This document shows positions 3,478-36,803 of a stretch of 64,000 bases of DNA, one piece after another. The translations under genes were made by a program, and so were the position numbers. Origin of the DNA: Gemmatimonadota bacterium (GTDB taxonomy: Bacteria; Gemmatimonadota; Gemmatimonadetes; Gemmatimonadales; Gemmatimonadaceae); assembly GCA_040389905.1 (NCBI GenBank), contig JAZJZK010000008.1, forward strand, positions 1 through 64,000, given 5' to 3'. The notes under the pieces were generated by a model that made no database searches, was not told the DNA's origin, and worked only from the letters and a program-made list of their open reading frames with translations. How positions within the stretch are numbered: the first letter of the stretch is position 1; each line of letters starts with the position of its first letter.

Positions 3478-3713
3478 TGGCCGACGAGTCCATCGCAGCG
3501 AGGCGCACCGCTATGCGGCGCGCAACGCTGCACTTGGTCCTCGGCATCATTATCCTTGATGCCGTCGCGCTGGGCGCGTACAAGCTGTTCGATATACAGT
3601 TCGCGCCGTACAAGACGCAGGTGATGTTCACGGTCGGCTGGACCGTCGCGACGGCTCTCGTCGTCGCTTTCCTGCTGAAGCGGGTGCGTGCGCTCAGAGG
3701 ACAACGACGCTGA
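3477..3713 (+). CDS. Small two-TM membrane protein (78 aa)
   Basis: ATG overlaps the RND stop (TGATG); two hydrophobic segments. Confidence 0.65.
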   Translation: MADESIAARRTAMRRATLHLVLGIIILDAVALGAYKLFDIQFAPYKTQVMFTVGWTVATALVVAFLLKRVRALRGQRR

Positions 3714-3714
3714 T

Positions 3715-3820
3715 TGACTCGGCTCGGATGACAGGTTCGTTTTGTCGCCCTAAACGAAGTGAAGGGCCTGCACCTGCTGTCACCCCGAGCGAGCGAAGCG
3801 AGTCGAGCGGGTCTGCACCT
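3715..3820. repeat. REP/RPE-like palindromic element cluster (family B)
   Basis: TGTCGCCCTAAACGAAGTGAAGGGCCTGCACC (3743) and TGTCACCCCGAGCG...TCGAGCGGGTCTGCACC (3778); similar copies at seven other loci. Confidence 0.85.
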
Positions 3821-3831
3821 CGCGCTGTTGG

Positions 3832-6800
3832 TCACGCCCACGCGGACAGCGCCGACTCCTCGACATCACTCGCGTTGATATCATCCTGCTCGGCCCACGC
3901 CGGAGCGTGAACCGGATGGAGACGCGGCAACGGAAACGGCTTCGCGTCTGCTACTGCACTCTTTGGCGACACTCGGCGGAATAGCTTCCGCGTCGCCGAC
4001 CAATTCTCCAGGAGCCGCTCCGCCGGCCGGCTCCCGGTGGCGTGAACGTGCCGGGCCAGAAGCTCGTGAATCCACAACTCGTCCGACGCCGAGAGGCTCT
4101 CCTCGATTCGCACCCATTCCTTATGGACGCGCGTTTCGAGTGCACCCTCTACGTCCAGTGCGAACAACACGCCTCCAGTCATCCCAGCACCGAGGTTGCG
4201 CCCCGTAGGCCCGAGGATGAGCACTCCACCGGCGGTCATGTATTCTGCGGCATGGTCGCCCGCGCCTTCCACGACGGCCACGGCACCGCTGTTGCGCACC
4301 GCGAATCGCTCGCCGACGCTACCCGCCAGGTAAGCGACACCACCCGTTGCACCGTAGAGCAGGGTGTTGCCCGCGATCACCTCATTCGTGCCGTCACGAT
4401 CGCCTGCCGTCGATGGTCGAATGACGATCTCTCCCCCCGACATGCCTTTGCCGACGTAGTCATTGGCCTCGCCATCGACGACGAGACGCATGCCGTCCAC
4501 GCAGAACGCGCCGAAGCTCTGACCCGCCGAGCCGCGGAAATGCAGGTGCACCGTGCGAGGGCCAACGGACCCTCCTCGCGACCACGACACCAGTTGGCCG
4601 GCAATGCGCGCCCCCACGGCGCGATCGGCATTCGAGATCGGAAGAATCAGTTCGACTGGGCAGACTCGGCCGTCCTCGAAGCGCAGTTCTCGCAACACGC
4701 GCTCGTCAATGCCGGCACCCGTCCGTGGAGGCGTGTTTCGGCGTGGCGTCGAATGGCGCTCGCTATCCGCTGGCGTCTCGAGAAGCACACGCTCGAGTCG
4801 TACGCGGCCGGCCTTGCCACCCACTTTCCCGTGCTGCACGAGCAGATCCGTGCGCCCTACGAGATCCGCGACGCGGCGCACACCAAGCATCGCGAGAATC
4901 TCTCGCACCTCCTCGGCCACGGCGACGAAAAAGCGGATCACATCGTCCGGTGTGCCGTCGAACTTCTTTCGCAGGTCCTCGCGTTGGGTGGCGATGCCCG
5001 CCGGACAGGTGTTCATGTGGCATTGCCGCGCCATGACGCAACCAGCCGCGACCAACGCCGCAGTGCCAAATCCGAACTCCTCCGCGCCAAGCATGGCGGC
5101 GATCACCACATCGCGTCCCGTTTTCATGCCGCCGTCCACCTGGAGCCGCACGCGCCCACGCAGGCCGCCGCGGACGAGCCCTTGCTGCGTTTCACTCAAC
5201 CCAAGCTCCCATGGCGTGCCGGCATTCTTGATCGACCCACGTGGTGACGCGCCGGTGCCGCCGTCGTGGCCACTGATCTGAATCGCATCGGCGTAGGCTT
5301 TTGCCACACCCACGGCGATCGTCCCGATGCCCGCGGACGACACGAGTTTTACACTGACGCTCGCGGCGGGATTGACACTCTTCAGGTCGTAAATGAGTTG
5401 TGAGAGATCTTCGATGCTGTAGATGTCATGATGCGGTGGCGGCGAGATGAGCGTGGTTCCAGCAACCGCGTGGCGCACGCGCGCGATGTGCTCGGTGACC
5501 TTCACTCCCGGAATCTGTCCACCTTCGCCAGGCTTGGATCCCTGCGCCATCTTGATCTGGATTTCGTCCGCGGACATCAGGTACGCCGCGGTCACGCCAA
5601 AGCGGCCCGACGCAACCTGCTTGATCCGTGCGCTCGCGCGGTCTGAACCCGATGTCGGCTTCCAGTGCAGCTCGTGTGGCTCACCACCTTCGCCGCTGTT
5701 GCTCCGCGCTCCCATCCGGTTCATGGCAATGGAGATTGCCTGCTGCGCCTCCGGCGAGAGAGAGCCAAGTGACATCGCCGCACTCATGAATCGCGGAAGG
5801 ATGTCCTCGACGGGCTCGACCTCCGAGAGCGCGATCGACTCCTGCGTCTTGAACTCCATCAGGTCACGCAGTGCGACGGGCGCTCGACTGTGCACGAGTT
5901 CCGCGAAGGCGCGATAGTCGAGCTTTGTGCCGGTGCGAATGGCGGTGTGGAGTGCCTTCACGACCCGTGGCTCGTAGGCGTGCGTGTCGCCGCCCTTCCG
6001 ATAGCGGTGCCACCCACCGTCTTCGAGTGCCGCGTCACTCTCGGTGAACGCGGCGCGGTGCCGCGCGAGCGTTTCGTCGGCGATGCCAGCGATGCCGAGT
6101 CCACTCACACTCGACGGTGTCCCTGTGAAATGGCGCGCAATGACGTGATTGGCGATGCCGATCGCCTCGAACAGTCCCGCCCCACGATACGATCGGAGTG
6201 TGGAGACCCCCATCTTCGCGATGATCTTCCGGAGCCCCTTCGCCAACGCCGCCCGATACCGTGTCTGCGCAACCTCGGCATCCATTGCATCATGCGCCGA
6301 CGACAGTTCGATCGCGGCGTATCCGAGGCGCGGGAACACCGCGTCGGCACCGAAGCCGAGGAGTGCCGCCACGGCGTGGTCGTCGCGCGCGTCGCCCGAG
6401 TCGACGACCAGACTCGTTTGAAGCCGCAGCCCCGCTCGGCTGAGATGCTGATGCAGTGCGGCGACAGCGAGCAGTGTGGGAAGGGCTGCGTGTGTCGCGT
6501 CGACTCCATCGTCGCAAAGGATCAGGCACGACGCGCCGCCGCGCGCCGCCTGGTCGCCATCGGCGACGAAGGCGTCGAGGGCCTTTGCGAATCCTCCACT
6601 TCCTTCCGCCGGATCGAACAGCAGCCCAAGGCGATGTGCCCTCCAATCCCTGTTCTGGTAGTCGAGTAGCGCTTCGATGTCGCCGGGCTCGAGAATGGGA
6701 TTGTCGAGATGGACGTGCGAGCCCGCCAAGGGCGCGTCCGCCAGCAGTGAGCCAGCAGCGCCAAGCCGAACGTCGAGAGACATCGTAAGCCCTTCGCGCA

Positions 6801-28903: not shown

Positions 28904-29023
28904 GGGTGGCCTGAGGTTGGCGACGGCCAAACATATTTCACGGGACCGGCCTCCGGCATCAGGAAACTTTCAGGGGTGACGGGCGTACGAGGGGACGATC
29001 CCCCACCTCAACAGGGTTGTCGT

Positions 29024-31369
29024 ATGCTGGCTCACATTGTCATCGCTCTCCTCCAGGTCACGTCTCCACCGCAGACGACGCGCAAGACACCAGCGCCGCC
29101 GCCGAAGCAGCAGGACCGGGACTCGACCACCAGCATGCATCGCCCGAAGAAGGATCCGAAGCGGATCGCCGTCACCGCCGAGATGCTGGCGTCGGCCTAT
29201 AAGAACGCGGAAACACAGAAGCTTCTGCTGACCGCGCGCGACGCGCGGCTGCGTCAGGATTCCGCGCTCCAGAGCTATGATGCCACGACCTACCAACGTG
29301 TCTCGGTGGGAATGGGCTTCACAAAATTCGGCCGTGACCGCCTCGCCTTCCGGAGCGAGCAAGCCACCAAGGTTCGGTGGCGTCGTGGCATTGGCGCCTA
29401 TGTCGACGTCACCGGATCGCGCGCGGTCGTTCCCATCGCCGGCAAGTCGGCTGCGATTCGGATGGACGGCAATGTTTCACCAATCCCGTATTACCCTGGC
29501 AGCGAGACTCTGTGGATCGGATCAAGCGCCGCCAACGAAGCCGTCGACGAAAACGAAGGCATCATTCATCCGCTCGCGGACGGCTCGGAAGCCTACTACA
29601 CCTACGCCGCCGGCGACTCCGCGACCTTTCGGCTACCGGATGGGACGGCGATTCGTCTGCGCGAGCTTCAGGTGCGCCCGCGCACGCCGAAGTGGAATCT
29701 CGCCGTTGGCTCCTTGTGGTTCGATCTCGCAGGTGGTCAGCTCGTGCGTGCTGCCTATCGCATGAGTGTGCCGATGGACATCAAGGCTGTCGCCGAAGAA
29801 GATGACTCGACCTCGTTCGAAGATGTGCCGGCCCTCGTGAAACCAATGATTTTCCCCATGACGGCATCGGTGAGCGCCATTGGCGTGGAATTCGGTCTCT
29901 ATCAGGGGCGATTCTGGCTGCCGCGCGTGCAGGTGATGGAGGGTGGCGCGAACGTGAGCTTTGTCCGCGTGCCCTTCAAGCTCGAGCAGTCCTACCAATA
30001 CGAGAACGTCAATTCCGGCGCGAAGTTGCCACCCATCGCTCGACCGGATTCGAATGCGCCGCGACAGGCGGGCGGTGTCAGCGTCAACGTCAACGTCGGT
30101 GGCCAGAGCAGGGCCGATTCCGTACGCGCCGCTCGGCGAAACTCACGACGCAGGGCGCAGTGCGACACCAGCGCGAACTATGTCTACACACGCGCGCCGC
30201 GAGACAATCCGAATCTCATCTTCACGAGCATCCCCTGTGATTCCGCGAAGCTCGCGAACTCGCCAGACCTGCCGCCGTCCATCTATGACAAAGATGAGGA
30301 ACGCTTCGGCGGCGAGGAGATGGACGCACTCGTTTCACAGGCGCTGTCGATGGGCGCGCAGGCAGACTTCTCGCCCCTCCCCATGACAGCGCAGTGGAAC
30401 AACCCGCGGTACAATCGCATCGAAGGCGTGTCGGTGGGTGGACGCGTGGATCAACAGCTCGGGGCAGGCTACTCGCTCCACGCTGAGGGACGCATTGGCA
30501 GCGCTGATTTCCAGCCCGCTGTCGAACTCACCGGTTCTCGCAGCGACCTTCGGCGCACGATGTCCATCAGTGCCTACAATCACCTCGTGTCCGCAGGAGA
30601 CTGGGGCAATCCGCTGACGCTCGGCGCATCGATTTCCGCGTTCCTGTTCGGCCGAGATGAAGGGTTCTATTATCGCGCCTCGGGGTTGGAATTGAGTTCG
30701 GTGCCGGATCAGGCGGCCGGTGGGGCGTTCATCTGGTCCGTGTTCGCGGAGCAGCAGCGGACGGCAACCCTCGGGACGTCGTTCTCGGTTGCGCACGCCG
30801 TGCACGGATCGACCTTCGAGCCCAACCTCGTGGCGACGCGCGGCGTCTTCGCTGGCGCGAGAAGCCGCTACACCGCGACCTTTGGACTCGATCCGGACGG
30901 TTTCCGTCTGTTCAGCGATTTCCGCGTCGAAGGGGCGCGTGCGGACACGGGAGCGTACGGACGCGCGGCGCTCGACGTGACGGTGTCGCATACCATTGGG
31001 AGCGGAGGAGTTTCCCTCACGCTCGCCGGCGGAAGTTCAATTGGAGTACTCCCGCCGCAACGGCAATGGTATCTCGGCGGTACGCAGACCGTTCGTGGCG
31101 AGCGCCCCGGCGCGCCTGGTGGTGTGGGTGACGCGTTCTGGCTCGCCCGCACCGAGTTCGCATTGAGCAATGGCGTAGTGAAGCCGGTCATCTTCGCCGA
31201 TCTCGGATGGGCGGGCGATCGCACGAAGCTCGACACGATTGGGTTGCCGATGTCCGGCGCGGGCTTCGGCTGGTCGATGCTCGACGGGTTGATTCGCTTC
31301 GACATCGCACGCGGGATCAACCCCGAGCGGGCGTGGCGCGTCGACACCTACATCGAGGCCCGTTTCTAG
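29024..31369 (+). CDS. Outer-membrane beta-barrel protein (Omp85/ShlB-like C-terminus)
   Basis: YNRIEG, LGGTQTVRG lid motif, terminal Phe. Confidence 0.75.
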   Translation: MLAHIVIALLQVTSPPQTTRKTPAPPPKQQDRDSTTSMHRPKKDPKRIAVTAEMLASAYKNAETQKLLLTARDARLRQDSALQSYDATTYQRVSVGMGFTKFGRDRLAFRSEQATKVRWRRGIGAYVDVTGSRAVVPIAGKSAAIRMDGNVSPIPYYPGSETLWIGSSAANEAVDENEGIIHPLADGSEAYYTYAAGDSATFRLPDGTAIRLRELQVRPRTPKWNLAVGSLWFDLAGGQLVRAAYRMSVPMDIKAVAEEDDSTSFEDVPALVKPMIFPMTASVSAIGVEFGLYQGRFWLPRVQVMEGGANVSFVRVPFKLEQSYQYENVNSGAKLPPIARPDSNAPRQAGGVSVNVNVGGQSRADSVRAARRNSRRRAQCDTSANYVYTRAPRDNPNLIFTSIPCDSAKLANSPDLPPSIYDKDEERFGGEEMDALVSQALSMGAQADFSPLPMTAQWNNPRYNRIEGVSVGGRVDQQLGAGYSLHAEGRIGSADFQPAVELTGSRSDLRRTMSISAYNHLVSAGDWGNPLTLGASISAFLFGRDEGFYYRASGLELSSVPDQAAGGAFIWSVFAEQQRTATLGTSFSVAHAVHGSTFEPNLVATRGVFAGARSRYTATFGLDPDGFRLFSDFRVEGARADTGAYGRAALDVTVSHTIGSGGVSLTLAGGSSIGVLPPQRQWYLGGTQTVRGERPGAPGGVGDAFWLARTEFALSNGVVKPVIFADLGWAGDRTKLDTIGLPMSGAGFGWSMLDGLIRFDIARGINPERAWRVDTYIEARF

Positions 31370-31389
31370 GCGAGGCGCTGCGGTGGTGA

Positions 31390-31424
31390 TGTCATCCCGA
31401 GCGAAGTCGAGGGATCTGCACCTG
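31390..31424. repeat. Family B single copy
   Basis: TGTCATCCCGAGCGAAGTCGAGGGATCTGCACCTG. Confidence 0.85.
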
Positions 31425-31495
31425 TCAGTCTGGGTTTGAGGCGTCGACGACTGCTCTTGACGAACCGCAGCGCCCGTGAGAGAATTGCCCTCAAT

Positions 31496-32632
31496 ATGTA
31501 TACAGAATCGTCGGCAATAACTCGTGGGCTGTTCCTCCTGACGTTCCTGGTCGCGCCACTCGCTGGCGCCCAGGAACCCGTGCGGCTTCCTGGCGTCAAC
31601 GTCACCGCTGAGTGGACCAAGCCGGGCCCGAGGCTCATGACAGGAGTCGTGCGCGACACCGGCGACTTCCTGCTCGATGGCGCAGAGATAACCCTCCCGG
31701 CGATCCGGCGACGCACCTTCTCCAAGCCTGATGGCACGTTTCGCCTCGACAGCCTCCCGCGAGGAAAGTACGAGGTTCGCGCCAGGAAATTCGGCTACGC
31801 CCCGCAGATCAGAACCGTGATCGTCGATAGCCTCGGCGGTATTGCGGAGTTTGCCCTGCTTCCCATGCCGCGTGCCCTGCCGGCAGTCATCGCCTCCGCC
31901 GTGCGCGGCGGTTTGAGTGGTGTCGTCGCGGACACGTCGTACAACATCGTGCCCGGCGCCGCAGTGCGCGTGATGGGTAAGAGCATCCGGACGACGACTG
32001 ATTCAGTCGGTGAATTCTTCATGCCGCTCCAACCGGGGAGCTATATGGTGGCAGTCCAGATGGAAGGGATGGAATCGAAGATCGTGGGAGTGAACATCCC
32101 GAGTGACAGCGGCCGACGGATTTCCGTCTTCCTTCAGCCGCCCTCCGCGCCGCGTCCGGTGCGCGAAGCGTTCAACATTGAAGATCTCACTCAACGACTC
32201 GGCGCGCGTAACAAGCAGCTCACCGCGGTTTACTCACGCGAAGAGCTCCAGAAGCTCGGCATCGAGTGGGTGATCGGGGCCGTGAACATGGGCGGGATGG
32301 ACTGGTACAGTGAAGACTGTGCTGTCATCATCAACGGGGGGCCGAGGACCGCGAGGCTCGGTAATCTCACGGTTGATGAGATTGAAAGTGTCGAGGTCTA
32401 CGGAGGCCGACGTGACATCGCCGCGCTCGTCGCCACGTCCATGGCAAACACGAAGGCGGGTGCCGGCAGCGGAAAGAAAGGCGTCGCGACCAAGGGAGCG
32501 CCTGGGATGAAGGTCCCACCGCTCGAAGAGCTGGACCGAATGAGCGCGATGTCCAACATCGACGAAGCACTTCGTCGGAATGCGGGGGTGGCGGCTATTT
32601 GCCCGGGAGCGGCGTATGTGTGGATGCGATAA
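31496..32632 (+). CDS. Secreted protein with two carboxypeptidase-regulatory-like domains and a plug-like C-terminus
   Basis: GVVRD...DGTFRL...GKYEVRARKFGY repeated; IESVEVY. Confidence 0.8.
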   Translation: MYTESSAITRGLFLLTFLVAPLAGAQEPVRLPGVNVTAEWTKPGPRLMTGVVRDTGDFLLDGAEITLPAIRRRTFSKPDGTFRLDSLPRGKYEVRARKFGYAPQIRTVIVDSLGGIAEFALLPMPRALPAVIASAVRGGLSGVVADTSYNIVPGAAVRVMGKSIRTTTDSVGEFFMPLQPGSYMVAVQMEGMESKIVGVNIPSDSGRRISVFLQPPSAPRPVREAFNIEDLTQRLGARNKQLTAVYSREELQKLGIEWVIGAVNMGGMDWYSEDCAVIINGGPRTARLGNLTVDEIESVEVYGGRRDIAALVATSMANTKAGAGSGKKGVATKGAPGMKVPPLEELDRMSAMSNIDEALRRNAGVAAICPGAAYVWMR

Positions 32633-32635
32633 GCC

Positions 32636-32663
32636 TTGACTTGTCCGCAGTCGCGGCCATATT
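32636..32663 (+). promoter_or_regulatory. sigma70-like promoter giving a leaderless leader transcript
   Basis: TTGACT-16nt-CATATT-6nt-ATG. Confidence 0.65.
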
Positions 32664-32669
32664 CGTCTT

Positions 32670-32756
32670 ATGACTTCACGAGCCGCGCAGTGTATGTGTC
32701 CCGTTTGTATGCCCATGTCGCGTATGCGACAGGGGATCGGTGACGCGCACTCGTAA
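32670..32756 (+). CDS. Cys/Met-rich leader peptide MTSRAAQCMCPVCMPMSRMRQGIGDAHS (28 aa)
   Basis: 3 Cys and 4 internal Met in codons 8-19; GGGATCGG (32733-32740) is complementary to the terminator 5' arm. Confidence 0.82.
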   Translation: MTSRAAQCMCPVCMPMSRMRQGIGDAHS

Positions 32757-32783
32757 GTCTCGACGTTAGCACACGTCGCCGAC

Positions 32784-32822
32784 GCGCCCCGATCCCACGC
32801 GGATCGGGGCGCTCTCTTTTTC
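32784..32822 (+). terminator. Attenuator terminator upstream of the ATP-grasp/LLM operon
   Basis: 12-bp stem GCGCCCCGATCC/GGATCGGGGCGC with a 5-nt loop, then TCTCTTTTTC. Confidence 0.85.
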
Positions 32823-32896
32823 TGGGCAACTTGGGATTCGCGAACGGATCGAGGTGCGGAGCGACACACCGTTCCCCTCTCCAAGGATGCCCAGCA

Positions 32897-33868
32897 ATGC
32901 GACCGATCGCCGTCTACCACGAGCACCCCGACTGGTTCAAGCCACTCTTCGCCGAGCTCGAGCGACGCGGACTTCCGTACGTCCGCCTCGATGCCTCATC
33001 GCACCGGTACGACCCCGCCGAGCGGACGTCGCCCTATTCGCTTGTGGTCAACCGCGCGAGTCCGTCGGCGTATCTGCGCGGGCATGCCGCCTCTACCTTC
33101 CACACGTTGCACTGGCTCCGCCACCTCGAGCGCGTCGGCACGCCCGTCATCAACGGCAGCAAGACGTACGGTTACGAGCTCTCCAAGGCGTCACAGGCCG
33201 ATGCACTTGCGGAACTCGGCATTCCCGTACCGCGATCGGTGGTCATCAACAATCCCGATCAAGCCGTACGCGCAGCGATCGATCTGCGCTATCCCGTTCT
33301 GGTCAAGGCAAACATCGGTGGCAGTGGCGCCGGCATCACCAAATACGAGACGGCCGCTGCGCTCGAAGCCGCCGTCGCACGCGGTGACGTGAACCTCGGC
33401 GTCGACGGCGTGGCGCTGGTGCAGGAAGCCGCACCACTTCGCGACGGTCACATCACCCGCGTCGAGACACTCGACGGCAACTATCTCTATGCCATCAACG
33501 TGTATCCAGCCATCGGCTCGTTCGATCTCTGTCCTGCCGACGCCTGCCAGACGACAACTGGCGTCGAGTTGGTGGGCGCCGCCTGCGCGGTCGATGCCGT
33601 GAAGAGCGGTCTTCGCGTCGAGGGGTACACGCCTCCGACGGAGATCATCGAGCAGGTCGAGCGTATCTCACGCTTTACGGGGCTCGATATCGGCGGCATC
33701 GAATACTTGATCGATGACCGCGACGGCAAGCCCTACTTCTACGACGTCAACGCCCTTTCCAACTTCGTCGCCGACGCACCGAACGTCATCGGCTTCGATC
33801 CGTGGGTGAACTTCGTGGACTACATCGAGGCCCGCATCGCGGATGCGCGCACCGAGGTCGCGGCATGA
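32897..33868 (+). CDS. RimK-like ATP-grasp protein
   Basis: YPVLVKANIGGSGAGI, LVQE, GGIEYL, FYDVNALSNF. Confidence 0.88.
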   Translation: MRPIAVYHEHPDWFKPLFAELERRGLPYVRLDASSHRYDPAERTSPYSLVVNRASPSAYLRGHAASTFHTLHWLRHLERVGTPVINGSKTYGYELSKASQADALAELGIPVPRSVVINNPDQAVRAAIDLRYPVLVKANIGGSGAGITKYETAAALEAAVARGDVNLGVDGVALVQEAAPLRDGHITRVETLDGNYLYAINVYPAIGSFDLCPADACQTTTGVELVGAACAVDAVKSGLRVEGYTPPTEIIEQVERISRFTGLDIGGIEYLIDDRDGKPYFYDVNALSNFVADAPNVIGFDPWVNFVDYIEARIADARTEVAA

Positions 33869-34953
33869 GTGCAACCATTGCTCCCGAGCGCCGATCAGCG
33901 AGTCCAGGCGCCGAAGCCCCCAGTCGCATGCGCTTCGGCTACTGGCTTCCCGTGTTCGGTGGCTGGCTGCGCAACGTCGACGACGAACGCATGGACGCGA
34001 GTTGGAGCTACACTCGGCGGCTGGCGCAGCGCAGTGAGGAGATCGGCTTCGATCTTACACTGATTGCGGAATTGTTTCTCAACGACATCAAAGGTGCGGA
34101 CGCACCTGCGCTGGACGCATGGAGTACGGCAGCCGCGCTCGCCGCGGTCACGGAACGACTCGAGCTCATGGTGGCCGTCCGGCCGCAATACCATCCCCCC
34201 GCGCAGCTCGCCAAGCAGGCAGCGAACATCGATCAGATCTCCAACGGGCGCCTGGCGCTGAATGTCGTGAGCGCGTGGTGGGCCGACGAAGCACGTCGGT
34301 ACGGCGTGCATTTCGACAAGCACGACGACCGCTACGCGCGCACTGCCGAGTGGCTGGATGTGGTGAGTGGCGCATGGCGCGAATCGCGACTGACGCACAA
34401 GGGCAGCTACTACACGGTCGACGACCTCATCGTCGAGCCAAAGCCCGTCCGTCGTCCCGGACCGACGATCTACGCCGGTGGAGAATCGGAAACCGCAAAG
34501 AATCTCATCGCCAGCAAGTGCGACGCGTACGTCATGCACGGTGATCCCGTCGAACGGATCGCACCGAAGGTGACCGACATGCGCACACGGCGCGAGACCG
34601 CTGGTGGGCCCGCCATGGAGTTCGGCATGGCGGCATACGTCATCGTCAGGGAGAGCGAGGCGGACGCGGAACGCGAACGCGCGCGCATCACCAACGTGAC
34701 GGTGGGGTCACCCGGCTATCACAACTATCAGGATTGGCTGGCGAACACCCAACTCGAGCAGCGCGTCTCACTCGAGGACTACTCGGTCTCGAATCGCGGG
34801 CTGCGCGCGGGTCTCGTCGGCACGGCGGAACAGGTCGCCGATCAGATCCGCGGTTTTCAGGACGCGGGCATTGGCTTGCTGCTCCTGCAATGCAGCCCGC
34901 AACTCGAAGAGATGGAACGCTTCGCGGAGGAGGTCATGCCGTTGGTGAACTAG
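33865..34953 (+). CDS. LLM-class flavin-dependent monooxygenase (SfnG/SsuD-like)
   Basis: FGYWLPVFGG, AAALAAVTERLELMVAVRP, IDQISNGRLALNVVS, YAGGES; ATGA overlap. Confidence 0.92.
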   Translation: MSATIAPERRSASPGAEAPSRMRFGYWLPVFGGWLRNVDDERMDASWSYTRRLAQRSEEIGFDLTLIAELFLNDIKGADAPALDAWSTAAALAAVTERLELMVAVRPQYHPPAQLAKQAANIDQISNGRLALNVVSAWWADEARRYGVHFDKHDDRYARTAEWLDVVSGAWRESRLTHKGSYYTVDDLIVEPKPVRRPGPTIYAGGESETAKNLIASKCDAYVMHGDPVERIAPKVTDMRTRRETAGGPAMEFGMAAYVIVRESEADAERERARITNVTVGSPGYHNYQDWLANTQLEQRVSLEDYSVSNRGLRAGLVGTAEQVADQIRGFQDAGIGLLLLQCSPQLEEMERFAEEVMPLVN

Positions 34954-34994: not shown

Positions 34995-36803
34995 ATGCGA
35001 ACTCTCCTCCGCTATCTCAAGCCGTACTGGCCGCTGGTCGTCCTGGCGCTCGTTCTCGCCACGATCAATCAGGTCTTTTCGCTGCTCGATCCGGCCATCC
35101 TGCGGCACATCGTCGACGACTACGCCTCCCAACGTGACAAGTACACGAAGGAGGAGTTCATCACGGGCATCGCGAAGTTGCTCGGCATGGCCGTCGGCGT
35201 GGCGTTCGTCAGCCGAGTGGCGAAGAACTTCCAGGATTATTTCCTGAATGTGGTAGTACAGCGAGTGGGCGCTGACCTGTATTCGGACGGCATCCGCCAC
35301 TCGCTCGCACTCCCCTTCCAGACCTTCGAGGATCAACGAAGCGGCGAGACGCTGGGCAAGCTCCAGAAAGTCCGCTCCGACACCGAGCGCTTCATCAACC
35401 AGTTCGTGAACTTCGTGTTCACCACCATCGTCGGCGTGGTGTTCGTGATGGTGTACTCATTCTCCGTGCACTGGTCCATCGGGCCGGCGTTCGTTCTGAC
35501 CGTTCCCGTGCTGGCGTTCATCAGCAACACCCTCAGCAAACGCGTCAAGGCGATTCAGAAGACCATCGTGAAGGAAACGACGGCCCTCGCCGGCGCCACC
35601 ACGGAATCGCTGCGCAACATCGAGTTGGTGAAGAGTCTTGGCCTCGCGAAACAGGAGGAGCTTCGCCTGAACGCCACGACGAACAAGATCCTTCAGCTCG
35701 AGCTGAAGAAGGTCCGATACATCCGATCCATCAGCTTCATCCAGGGCACGGCGGTGAACTTCATCCGCACCTGCATTCTCTTCCTCATGTTGTTCCTGAT
35801 CTTTCAGGGGAAGATGTCGGTGGGGCAGTACTTCTCGTTGATGATCTACAGCTTCTTCATTTTCGGACCGATGCAGGAGCTGGGCAACGTCGTCAACACG
35901 TTCCGCGAGACGGAGGCGTCGCTCGAGAACTTCGAGGCGATCTTCCGTATTCCCGTCGACCCGAAACCGGTCAACCCGGTTCCGATCGACGACCTCCATA
36001 CGTTCTCGTTCACGGATGTGAGCTTCACGCATGCGACGGCCACCGGCCCTGCGCTCGCCGATGTGTCGTTCGAGGCGCACAGGGGACAGACGCTCGCGTT
36101 CGTCGGACCGTCCGGCGCGGGGAAGACCACGCTCGTGAAGCTGCTCGTCGGACTCTATCGGCCGAGTCACGGGCAGATCCTGTATAACGGCATTTCGAGC
36201 GAGCGCATCGACCTGGACCGATTCCGTGAACGTATCGGCTTCGTGACGCAGGATGCGCAGCTCTTCAGCGGAACGATCCGCGAAAACCTGCTCTTCGTGC
36301 GACCGGACGCGACTGATGAGCAGTGTCTCGCGGTGATGAAGCGCGCGGCGGCGAACTCGCTGCTCAATCGGGCCGACAAGGGGCTCGACACCGTGATCGG
36401 CGAGGGCGGGATGAAGATTTCCGGCGGTGAGAAGCAACGCCTGTCGATTGCCCGTGCGCTCCTCCGCGACCCGCAACTCCTCGTCTTCGACGAGGCGACG
36501 AGCTCGCTCGACTCCCTCACCGAAGAGGAGATCAGTCGGACGATGCGCGACGTCTCCGAAACATCCGACGTGATCACGGTGCTGATTGCACACCGCCTGA
36601 GCACCGTTCTGCATGCCGATCAGATCTTCGTCCTGGAGCGTGGCCGAGTGATCGAGCAAGGACGCCACGACGAGTTGCTCGAGCGGAAGGGACTCTACTA
36701 CGCCATGTGGCGCCAGCAAGTCGGGGAGCGTCGGACGATTACCGCCACGGGACCTGCCGTCGCCGGAAAACCGCCGCTCTCGTCGGGCGCGATCGCCGGT
36801 TGA
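34995..36803 (+). CDS. Fused ABC exporter (TMD plus NBD)
   Basis: GPSGAGKT, ISGGEKQR, DEATS, IAHRLST. Confidence 0.95.
   Translation: MRTLLRYLKPYWPLVVLALVLATINQVFSLLDPAILRHIVDDYASQRDKYTKEEFITGIAKLLGMAVGVAFVSRVAKNFQDYFLNVVVQRVGADLYSDGIRHSLALPFQTFEDQRSGETLGKLQKVRSDTERFINQFVNFVFTTIVGVVFVMVYSFSVHWSIGPAFVLTVPVLAFISNTLSKRVKAIQKTIVKETTALAGATTESLRNIELVKSLGLAKQEELRLNATTNKILQLELKKVRYIRSISFIQGTAVNFIRTCILFLMLFLIFQGKMSVGQYFSLMIYSFFIFGPMQELGNVVNTFRETEASLENFEAIFRIPVDPKPVNPVPIDDLHTFSFTDVSFTHATATGPALADVSFEAHRGQTLAFVGPSGAGKTTLVKLLVGLYRPSHGQILYNGISSERIDLDRFRERIGFVTQDAQLFSGTIRENLLFVRPDATDEQCLAVMKRAAANSLLNRADKGLDTVIGEGGMKISGGEKQRLSIARALLRDPQLLVFDEATSSLDSLTEEEISRTMRDVSETSDVITVLIAHRLSTVLHADQIFVLERGRVIEQGRHDELLERKGLYYAMWRQQVGERRTITATGPAVAGKPPLSSGAIAG

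Follow-up and report, generated by a model that had tools for sequence, protein, structure and literature searches.

The stretch of DNA analyzed here, 64,000 nucleotides (nt) long and referred to below as the window, is contig C8 (JAZJZK010000008.1, positions 1 to 64,000) of a metagenome-assembled genome (MAG) of a Gemmatimonadota bacterium from the family Gemmatimonadaceae (assembly GCA_040389905.1, here G000; 5.08 Mb, 66 contigs, 84.6% complete). Close to its middle, a gene for a CarboxypepD_reg-domain protein is followed by an operon that starts with genes for an ATP-grasp ligase and a luciferase-like monooxygenase (LLM). The interval between them contains a promoter-like site, a short upstream open reading frame (uORF) rich in Cys and Met codons, and an intrinsic terminator (Table 1). 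A preliminary description of this interval had read it as a leader-peptide attenuator controlling the operon, and that reading is supported in its core by the anatomy of the region, the constraint on the reading frame, covariation, and the regulon context. We propose that the element is probably a ribosome-mediated transcription attenuator with Cys/Met specificity, a conclusion drawn from comparison of sequences.

Table 1. Features of the leader, the downstream operon and its upstream neighbor in the window, and the second leader found in the same genome.
Feature	Position	Strand	Remarks
CarboxypepD_reg-domain gene	31436-32632		Upstream neighbor
−35 hexamer TTGACT	32636-32641	+	Promoter-like site scored 9/12 by scan
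−10 hexamer CATATT	32658-32663	+	16-nt spacer after −35
Leader ORF (uORF)	32670-32756	+	28 codons and stop (32754-32756); ATG six bases past −10
P1	32672-32759	+	Long imperfect hairpin spanning the uORF; Cys/Met codons in 5′ arm
Sensor codons (putative)	32691-32726	+	Cys 8, 10, 13; Met 9, 14, 16, 19
Region 2	32733-32748	+	Proposed antiterminator 5′ strand; pairs with 32784-32796
P2	32761-32778	+	Small hairpin just past the stop codon; 32761-32766 with 32773-32778
Intrinsic terminator	32784-32822	+	Stem 32784-32795 with 32801-32812; U-rich tail 32813-32822
ATP-grasp ligase (RimK/LysX-like)	32897-33868	+	First structural gene; best NCBIfam match 55.5 bits, below cut-off
Luciferase-like FMNH2-type monooxygenase (LLM)	33865-34953	+	Pfam Bac_luciferase, E = 7.9e-59
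Fused ABC permease/ATPase, exporter type	34995-36803	+	Third gene
Second leader in G000	C66 3987-4159	−	Weak covariance-model match

The promoter-like site and the uORF lie exactly where they were first described. The uORF is translated as MTSRAAQCMCPVCMPMSRMRQGIGDAHS, and Cys or Met occupies 7 of the 12 codons from 8 to 19 (3 Cys, all TGT, and 4 Met). The dipeptide CC is absent from this leader, in which the Cys residues are arranged as C-M-C..C; consecutive Cys runs are present in some relatives (leaders L041, L080, and L103). As can be read from the window sequence, no Shine-Dalgarno sequence precedes the ATG at 32670. Given the geometry of the −35 and −10 hexamers, the transcription start is predicted to fall on or next to the leader AUG, and the transcript would thus be leaderless.

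The region from 32664 to 32830 has a predicted folding energy of −78.6 kcal/mol (z = −4.52), and none of 200 shuffled sequences was equally stable. The previously reported 12–base pair (bp) terminator at 32784-32812 was recovered both by scan and by folding; it has 12 pairs, 10 of them G-C, a loop of 5, the tail TCTCTTTTTC, and an energy of −26.1 kcal/mol. Within P1, an inner helix is formed by 32709-32721 paired with 32726-32737. The terminator lies ~85 nt before the ATP-grasp start, with the Shine-Dalgarno region of that gene outside the structure, and the scan found no promoter-like site of the operon's own in 32823-32896. No S-adenosylmethionine (SAM) riboswitch model fits the region: a permissive Rfam scan of 31000-34500 returned five matches, all with E ≥ 1.8 and none from a SAM family.

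Across 8 kb around the element, promoter-like sites (3 versus 1.4 in shuffles) and terminator-like sites (6 versus 4.7) are not in excess. The scan alone is therefore weak, and the case rests on comparative data. When G000 was scanned genome-wide for small Cys/Met ORFs accompanied by a TTGAC promoter or by a terminator, only the element in the window looked real; a Met-rich leader preceding hom in the same genome, considered below, was missed because the scans demanded at least two Cys. The scans also returned two further small Cys-rich ORFs, at C48 3661-3554 (minus strand) and C20 138424-138594 (plus strand), one a 35–amino acid frame with 9 Cys and one a 56–amino acid frame with CxxC pairs. 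Comparable terminators do not follow them, and both resemble small proteins more than leaders.

Of 61 related genomes, 26 have the ATP-grasp gene, as do 21 of the 36 genomes of the genus other than G000. Enough upstream DNA was available at 22 loci of the genus, and the complete unit (−35, −10, start codon, Cys/Met cluster, P1, P2, and terminator) is present at 18 of them. In the 18 aligned leaders, TTGAC[AT] is invariably present, 34 to 37 nt 5′ of the start codon, which is ATG in 16 leaders and GTG in 2. A −10–like hexamer, A in its second and T in its sixth position, occurs in 17 of the 18, spaced 16 to 18 nt from the −35 hexamer and ending 6 to 8 nt ahead of the start. The N-terminal part of the peptide is variable even inside the genus, and the distance from the start codon to the Cys/Met block takes seven values (29, 32, 35, 38, 41, 44, and 47 nt), all of which keep a single frame (18/18). 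Seven length classes in one frame are what translation predicts, and not what would be expected of a noncoding spacer. The conservation of the uORF that the preliminary description asked for is thus borne out, as is the recurrence of Cys/Met uORFs upstream of orthologous operons.

A covariance model built from the 18 leaders gave one strong match (102 to 167 bits) per genome in 27 of 55 genomes of the genus, and at the loci checked this match was always at the ATP-grasp operon. The unit is retained where the upstream neighbor is divergent (L069 and L080). The hairpin travels with the uORF and the operon whatever lies upstream, which contradicts the possibility, raised at the outset, that it is merely the terminator of the upstream gene.

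The RNA structure is conserved as well. RNAalifold returned P1, P2, and the terminator as the consensus of the 18 leaders, with 97.7% of the cells of the alignment paired and 7 of 29 pairs changed on both sides. None of 500 column shuffles reached any of the five measures used, and slid controls were 29 to 49% paired. The compensatory changes are spread over all three hairpins: in P1, helices 1 and 2 (alignment A1) are 93 to 97% paired with 4 pairs changed on both sides; P2 is 97.2% paired with 1 such pair; and the terminator is 100% paired with 2. Three sequence versions of the P1 inner helix occur, GGC:GCC, CGC:GCG (the window), and GUC:GAC (L013), and they alter the peptide from ..MW.QP.G to ..MSRMRQG (the window) or ..MCQSTHG. 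Pairing is kept while residues change; it is the RNA and not the peptide that is under selection in this part.

A scan of species-representative genomes brought up at least 595 relatives of the ATP-grasp protein, from which 80 loci were kept; pooling with the earlier loci and removal of six duplicates gave 101 unique loci. At 39 of these, a Cys-containing uORF followed by a terminator lies within 450 nt of the ATP-grasp gene. At three more, from other families of the order (L024 to L026), the Cys/Met uORF and terminator precede a gene for a flavin mononucleotide (FMN) reductase instead, so that the element tracks the 5′ end of the operon rather than a particular neighbor. This brings the total to 42 of 101 loci across the order, always at the operon 5′ end. 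What other Gemmatimonadaceae and three further families of the order retain is limited to the architecture and the high Cys/Met content: there are many leader subfamilies with unrelated RNA and peptide sequences, which have in common −35/−10 hexamers near the start codon, a cluster of Cys/Met codons, and a terminator. A strong G+C hairpin separates the uORF from the operon in the 18 leaders of the genus, in 18 diverged leaders that were folded (a set that includes the window and L027), and in L024 to L026.

In the 39 leaders (1107 residues), Cys makes up 11.0% and Met 10.6%, compared to 0.61 and 1.79%, respectively, in 11 genes of the window. Internal Met is present in 38 of the 39 leaders and the dipeptide MC in 31. 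Because the filter that defined the leaders required two nearby Cys, part of the Cys excess comes from the filter itself; Met was no selection criterion, and its excess does not. Many of the leaders are kin, and the counts therefore overstate their independence.

Elsewhere, orthologous operons have a different sensor in place of this leader or in series with a uORF. In an Rfam search of 54 loci at the gathering threshold, SAM-II riboswitches were found directly 5′ of the ATP-grasp gene and on the same strand at 10 Gemmatimonadaceae loci, and SAM-I riboswitches at the two Hymenobacteraceae loci, with gaps of 63 to 420 nt between riboswitch and gene. A search with the conserved SAM-II aptamer core raised the number of SAM-II loci to 18. 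Among the Gemmatimonadaceae SAM-II aptamers (loci within L040 to L098) the core is nearly invariant, and downstream of each lies a G+C hairpin with a T-tract, so that these riboswitches appear to act on transcription termination. At two loci, a SAM-II riboswitch with its terminator stands in series with a Cys/Met uORF and a second terminator before the ATP-grasp gene (L053, ~3665-3934; L098, ~3664-3990). In Hymenobacteraceae, where 20 of 81 sampled genomes have the ATP-grasp gene, SAM-I lies upstream at 19 of the 20 loci (L113 to L132), and in 15 of these 19 a short ORF ending in 3 to 7 Cys is placed between the riboswitch and the ATP-grasp/LLM operon. By hand count, the 427 residues of the Hymenobacteraceae uORFs include 74 Cys but only 6 internal Met. 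We found no description of such a tandem of SAM-I and a polyCys uORF in the literature searched. Depending on the lineage, the same operon is thus apparently controlled by a SAM sensor, by a Cys(/Met)-codon sensor, or by both, and its upstream regions place the ATP-grasp/LLM operon in what we read as the Met/SAM regulon.

Weak matches of the covariance model, 23 in the genus with scores of 26 to 38 bits, include a second leader in G000 itself, on contig C66 (Table 1). The second-leader region (~4300-3974, minus strand) corresponds to ~1284-1610 of locus L110. A promoter and a SAM-II–like aptamer, which has its own terminator, come first. They are followed by a uORF of 30 codons (among them 4 internal Met and 1 Cys) and a small hairpin; a second terminator, of the sequence type seen in the window, then precedes the homoserine dehydrogenase gene hom (PF00742; PRK06349, 264 bits versus a cut-off of 205). 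The leader proper sits directly 3′ of the SAM-II match at 4191-4260, which scores 28.5 bits, below the cut-off of 36. Of the other 22 weak matches, 17 were fetched; 14 carry the same tandem with its Met-rich leader and 3 are unrelated. The gene that follows is hom in 11 cases and metX in 2 (NF006449, 326 bits versus a cut-off of 296); the remaining leader comes from an unpublished genome, G012. The hom/metX leaders are mainly Met-rich, and some have no Cys (L154 and L158). Of the 15 such leaders, including that of G000, 14 were aligned, the G012 one being left out. RNAalifold again placed the Met/Cys codons in the 5′ arm of a long hairpin followed by P2 and a terminator, with 6 pairs changed on both sides. 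Of the evidence at hand, the presence of Met-rich leaders before genes of the methionine pathway argues most strongly for the AUG codons being read as a signal. Together with the SAM riboswitches on orthologous operons, these leaders provide independent support for a sulfur–amino acid logic.

In the classical scheme of attenuation, the terminator competes with an alternative helix formed by the segment released when a ribosome stalls. The preliminary description had proposed that GGGATCGG at 32733-32740 pairs with CCGATCCC at 32789-32796, extended by CGCG with CGCG. Both segments of this proposed pairing of region 2 with region 3 (alignment columns 79-93 with 139-152) are present in the window. 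The 2:3 helix encloses P2 and overlaps both the P1 3′ arm and the terminator 5′ arm; because it shares bases with both, it has the property that the classical scheme needs. The segment 32726-32798 folds as the 2:3 helix stacked on P2 (−29.5 kcal/mol). The pairing potential amounts to 83.7% of cells across the 18 leaders, versus 30 to 57% in slid registers. Both conformers were folded: without masking, the full-length RNA of all 18 leaders folds into P1 and the terminator, and when the P1 5′ arm is masked as by a stalled ribosome and the terminator 3′ arm is not yet made, a 2:3 helix of 11 to 15 bp forms in 17 of 18.

On these grounds, the element may work as follows. Transcription would begin at or next to the leader AUG, the nascent RNA would fold into P1, and translation of the leader would be initiated in a leaderless manner. 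When Cys- and Met-tRNA are plentiful, the ribosome would run to the stop codon and cover the P1 3′ arm (region 2), its footprint being ~32739-32768; the 12-bp terminator would then form, and transcription would end before the ATP-grasp/LLM/ABC operon. With no translation at all, P1 would sequester region 2, and termination would result as well. When Cys and/or Met is scarce, the ribosome would stall on the Cys/Met cluster at codons 8 to 16 and melt the P1 5′ arm, and the freed region 2 could pair with the terminator 5′ arm, stacked on P2, allowing read-through. Because a ribosome stalled at Met codon 19 would itself cover region 2, stalls at the early codons are expected to be the productive ones. 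The shortage to which the leader responds may be of Cys, of Met, or of both; dual sensing, like an organosulfur role of the operon, is inferred.

Several observations weigh against this interpretation. The first concerns the antiterminator, whose proposed pairing is conserved yet does not rise above shuffled, swapped, or random controls. Covariation of the 2:3 helix is not above that of column shuffles (score 0.120 versus 0.111; 65 of 500 shuffles reach it), and a shuffled region 2 still yields ~9 pairs on average. Among the 18 diverged leaders, region 2 pairs with the region 3 of its own leader no better than with that of another leader, nor does this pairing outdo that with random 48-mers of the same locus (the median fraction of 48-mers that pair equally well is 0.33; for the window it is 0.125). 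In this G+C-rich setting, we regard the 2:3 antiterminator helix as conserved and as no more than a plausible candidate. By hand count, the U-tract is broken in 5 of the 18 terminators of the genus (type TCTGCATTC). The unit is absent from 4 of the 22 loci of the genus (L004, L014, L018, and L029; L018 is from G012), and, of all 101 loci, 41 are without such a leader. In the leaders, conservation is weaker for Met than for Cys, with a single internal Met in L016, L023, and L035 and none in L077. Since ATG-TGY repeats pair inside P1 too, some of the Met signal could stem from a constraint on the RNA. Last, all the genomes compared are MAGs.

The four loci of the genus without the unit share another upstream region, with a box of the form ..GCTATCCTGCA.. 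located ~95 nt before the ATP-grasp start. The GG/GC spacing of this box is reminiscent of the sigma-54 promoter consensus. An Rfam search of the L014 upstream region matched no family.

The operon itself gives further context. The LLM ATG overlaps the ATP-grasp stop codon (ATGA). The preliminary description had called the LLM SfnG/SsuD-like; the relationship holds, but the equivalog cut-offs are not reached (237 bits versus 383 for the SfnG model TIGR04021 and 175.5 versus 518 for the SsuD model TIGR03565). Its closest solved chains are 3rao (uncharacterized, 427 bits), 8vw6 (named alkanesulfonate monooxygenase, 375 bits), and the SfnG chain 8t0u (178 bits); a study that cites 3RAO does so only as an uncharacterized search model (PMC11588060). 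Judged by these scores, the enzyme belongs to a clade neighboring SfnG and SsuD and is not a member of either. The ATP-grasp protein matched chains of RimK, LysX, and cyanophycin synthetase in the Protein Data Bank (PDB). An LLM gene follows the ATP-grasp gene in 13 of 15 loci put to Pfam, and the pair is a conserved structural unit that occurs in several phyla, in some lineages with an FMN reductase. In L024 to L026, a gene for an NADPH-dependent FMN reductase (PF03358) overlaps the ATP-grasp start, which fits a two-component monooxygenase system using reduced FMN (FMNH2). The ATP-binding cassette (ABC) gene is not conserved and was not seen beside the enzyme pair in the examined loci outside the window. 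At L051, on a Gemmatimonas sp. chromosome, an amidase-domain ORF follows the ATP-grasp gene in place of the LLM gene, and at L105, from Gemmata, no LLM is present among the ORFs submitted. Farther upstream in the window, a 797–amino acid ORF (28976-31369, plus strand) has an M20 peptidase gene on one side and the CarboxypepD_reg gene on the other; it matched no Pfam or NCBIfam model.

Four other explanations of the element were weighed. It is possible, though we consider it unlikely, that the leader senses Cys only and that the Met codons are by-products of ATG-TGY repeats, which supply P1 with the self-complementary and G-U-rich RNA that it requires. All 39 leaders contain two or more Cys, although this was the selection filter, and Met falls to 0 or 1 in L016, L023, L035, L074, L077, and L098. 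The U and G of Met codons do pair in P1 (columns 47-52 with 89-94), yet the Met enrichment recurs in leader subfamilies that differ in RNA sequence, and the paralogous hom/metX leaders are mainly Met-rich, some of them free of Cys, before genes of the methionine pathway. The known mycobacterial precedents sense Cys alone (10.1101/834739). The Hymenobacteraceae uORFs are likewise pure polyCys; however, polyCys without Met occurs there in a setting where SAM-I already reports on methionine status.

The uORF could also act by another route, such as Rho-dependent polarity, an effect on mRNA stability, or coupling or occlusion of translation, the hairpin then being a constitutive, leaky terminator or a stabilizer. 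The antiterminator's standing against controls and the poor U-tracts in 5 of 18 terminators speak for such a route, as does the mycobacterial polyCys leader, which acts on translation and not on termination (10.1101/834739). Arguing the other way, a strong G+C hairpin lies between uORF and operon in all the folded leaders, whether from the genus, diverged, or from L024 to L026; P1 and the terminator share the region 2/region 3 logic in two paralogous leader families; and the terminator, at its distance from the ATP-grasp start, excludes the Shine-Dalgarno sequence of that gene. Taken together, these points make another route improbable.

We see very little chance that the small ORF encodes a functional peptide, for example the precursor of a ribosomally made, post-translationally modified peptide (RiPP), a scaffold, or a carrier, that is modified by the ATP-grasp and LLM enzymes and exported by the ABC protein, with the hairpin setting stoichiometry. 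The idea is suggested by the neighborhood, in which a gene for a Cys-rich peptide adjoins those for an ATP-grasp ligase, an oxygenase, and an exporter-type ABC protein, and by the fact that RimK/LysX relatives act on protein C-termini. Against it, the peptide sequence is not kept where RNA pairing is, the N-termini are free to vary even among loci of the genus, 16 SAM-II–only loci have the enzyme pair but no such peptide, the ABC gene is outside the conserved unit, and control by SAM riboswitches points to primary sulfur metabolism. We rejected the RiPP reading on the lack of peptide conservation where RNA pairing is kept, on the loci that have the enzymes without the peptide, and on the score of the RiPP-maturase ATP-grasp model TIGR04187 (20.4 bits versus a cut-off of 350). 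That the ORF is a chance frame and the hairpin the terminator of the CarboxypepD_reg gene is hardly credible: the hairpin is 150 nt past the stop codon of that gene and a 28-codon open frame is not rare at 63% G+C, but the comparative data contradict this reading, since the unit is conserved with the downstream operon whatever the upstream gene or its strand, the frame is conserved in 18 of 18 leaders, and each genome with a strong covariance-model match has one copy, at this operon in the loci checked.

Leader-peptide attenuation is a textbook mechanism, and the proposed attenuator has most of the parts of the classical examples (trpL, hisL, leuL, thrL, pheL, and ilv): a short ORF enriched in particular codons, a 1:2 hairpin that holds these codons, a proposed alternative 2:3 helix, an intrinsic terminator before the first structural gene, and a stop codon placed so that a terminating ribosome covers region 2. 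It differs from them in that its start lies at the predicted 5′ end of the transcript and has no Shine-Dalgarno sequence, in the extra conserved hairpin P2 within the antiterminator loop, in its putative sensor codons, which are Cys and Met, in the phylum, Gemmatimonadota, and in the genes controlled, which are not a biosynthetic pathway of known function. To our knowledge, neither Cys nor Met is among the amino acids sensed by classical leader-peptide attenuators; until now, methionine is known only in connection with riboswitches, T-boxes, and protein regulators, and cysteine only with translational polyCys leaders in Actinobacteria.

Leaderless polyCys uORFs with attenuating function have been described in mycobacteria, as the preliminary description had noted (the "Cys ribulon" of Canestrari et al.; 10.1101/834739). 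There, attenuation is translational, through a duplex that sequesters the Shine-Dalgarno sequence of the next gene, no transcription termination was seen with the reporter, and the authors state that uORF-mediated attenuation was previously undescribed for cysteine. The resemblance to the window leader lies in the leaderless ORF (predicted here), the reading of Cys codons through ribosome pausing (proposed here), the link of the operons to sulfur or cysteine metabolism, and the presence of several loci per genome. In contrast to the mycobacterial leaders, whose Cys codons are consecutive and C-terminal and for which no Met role is described, the window leader has Met and Cys interleaved in the middle of the ORF, and it has an intrinsic terminator, with the Shine-Dalgarno region of the next gene outside the structure. 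For Actinobacteria, Seliverstov et al. (2005) had predicted leader peptides with Cys codons "without obvious terminators," for which they suggested Rho dependence (PMC1262725). As reported there, these too are short ORFs with Cys codons, but the codons form Cys runs upstream of cys/cbs genes, and the leaders have no Met codons and no terminator hairpins and come from another phylum.

The SAM-II (RF00521) and SAM-I (RF00162) riboswitches control orthologous ATP-grasp/LLM operons in other Gemmatimonadaceae and in Hymenobacteraceae, and hom/metX in this genus, and are followed by terminators; they are metabolite-binding RNAs, whereas the window leader is a putative ribosome-read ORF with no Rfam match, and at some loci the two kinds stand in series. 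Another ATP-grasp amino acid ligase under Met/Cys regulation is LdmS of Staphylococcus, which is under S-box/CymR control (PMC9486568). Its partner is an M20 peptidase, in place of the LLM of the window, and its reported control does not involve a leader peptide. Among the PDB matches listed for the window ATP-grasp protein none has the name LdmS, and these matches showed no sequence relation between the two.

Searches limited to open-access papers and bioRxiv found no methionine-codon attenuator, no Cys/Met leader, and no such element in Gemmatimonadota. In a review on tandem riboswitches, a term search for uORF, leader peptide, and attenuat- gave no hits (PMC9481103). What is new here is most likely the Cys/Met specificity of an otherwise classical attenuator, a type of control not yet described for methionine or for this phylum. 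By sequence comparison, the finding is wider than the window: Gemmatimonadaceae have a putative family of Met/Cys leader-peptide attenuators, found alone or in series with SAM-II, and the tandems of this family have an apparent polyCys-plus-SAM-I counterpart in Hymenobacteraceae.

A broader picture, which we offer tentatively and which could well prove wrong, is that Gemmatimonadaceae have a ribosome-read sulfur–amino acid regulon in which Met- and Cys-rich leader peptides, each with an intrinsic terminator at its end, control two or more targets, namely a Met branch (hom and metX, in series with SAM-II) and the widely conserved ATP-grasp/LLM module, and that the window leader merges the tRNA-Met and tRNA-Cys inputs. 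If this is true, a single leaderless peptide would do the work performed in Hymenobacteraceae and in some Gemmatimonadaceae by a SAM riboswitch and a polyCys uORF in series; these leaders would then also be the first attenuator known to use methionine codons, and their arrangement in series with riboswitches the first such tandem on record.

The occurrence of one operon under several controls, according to lineage, would allow a direct comparison of SAM sensing with the sensing of tRNA charging, and the series of lineages shows how one regulator may replace or supplement another in the course of evolution. Codon-composition scans beside terminators may reveal further regulons in uncultured phyla. 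For the organisms themselves, this regulation marks the uncharacterized ATP-grasp/LLM module as a probable part of the response to Met/Cys starvation, and it would provide a handle on the substrate of the module.

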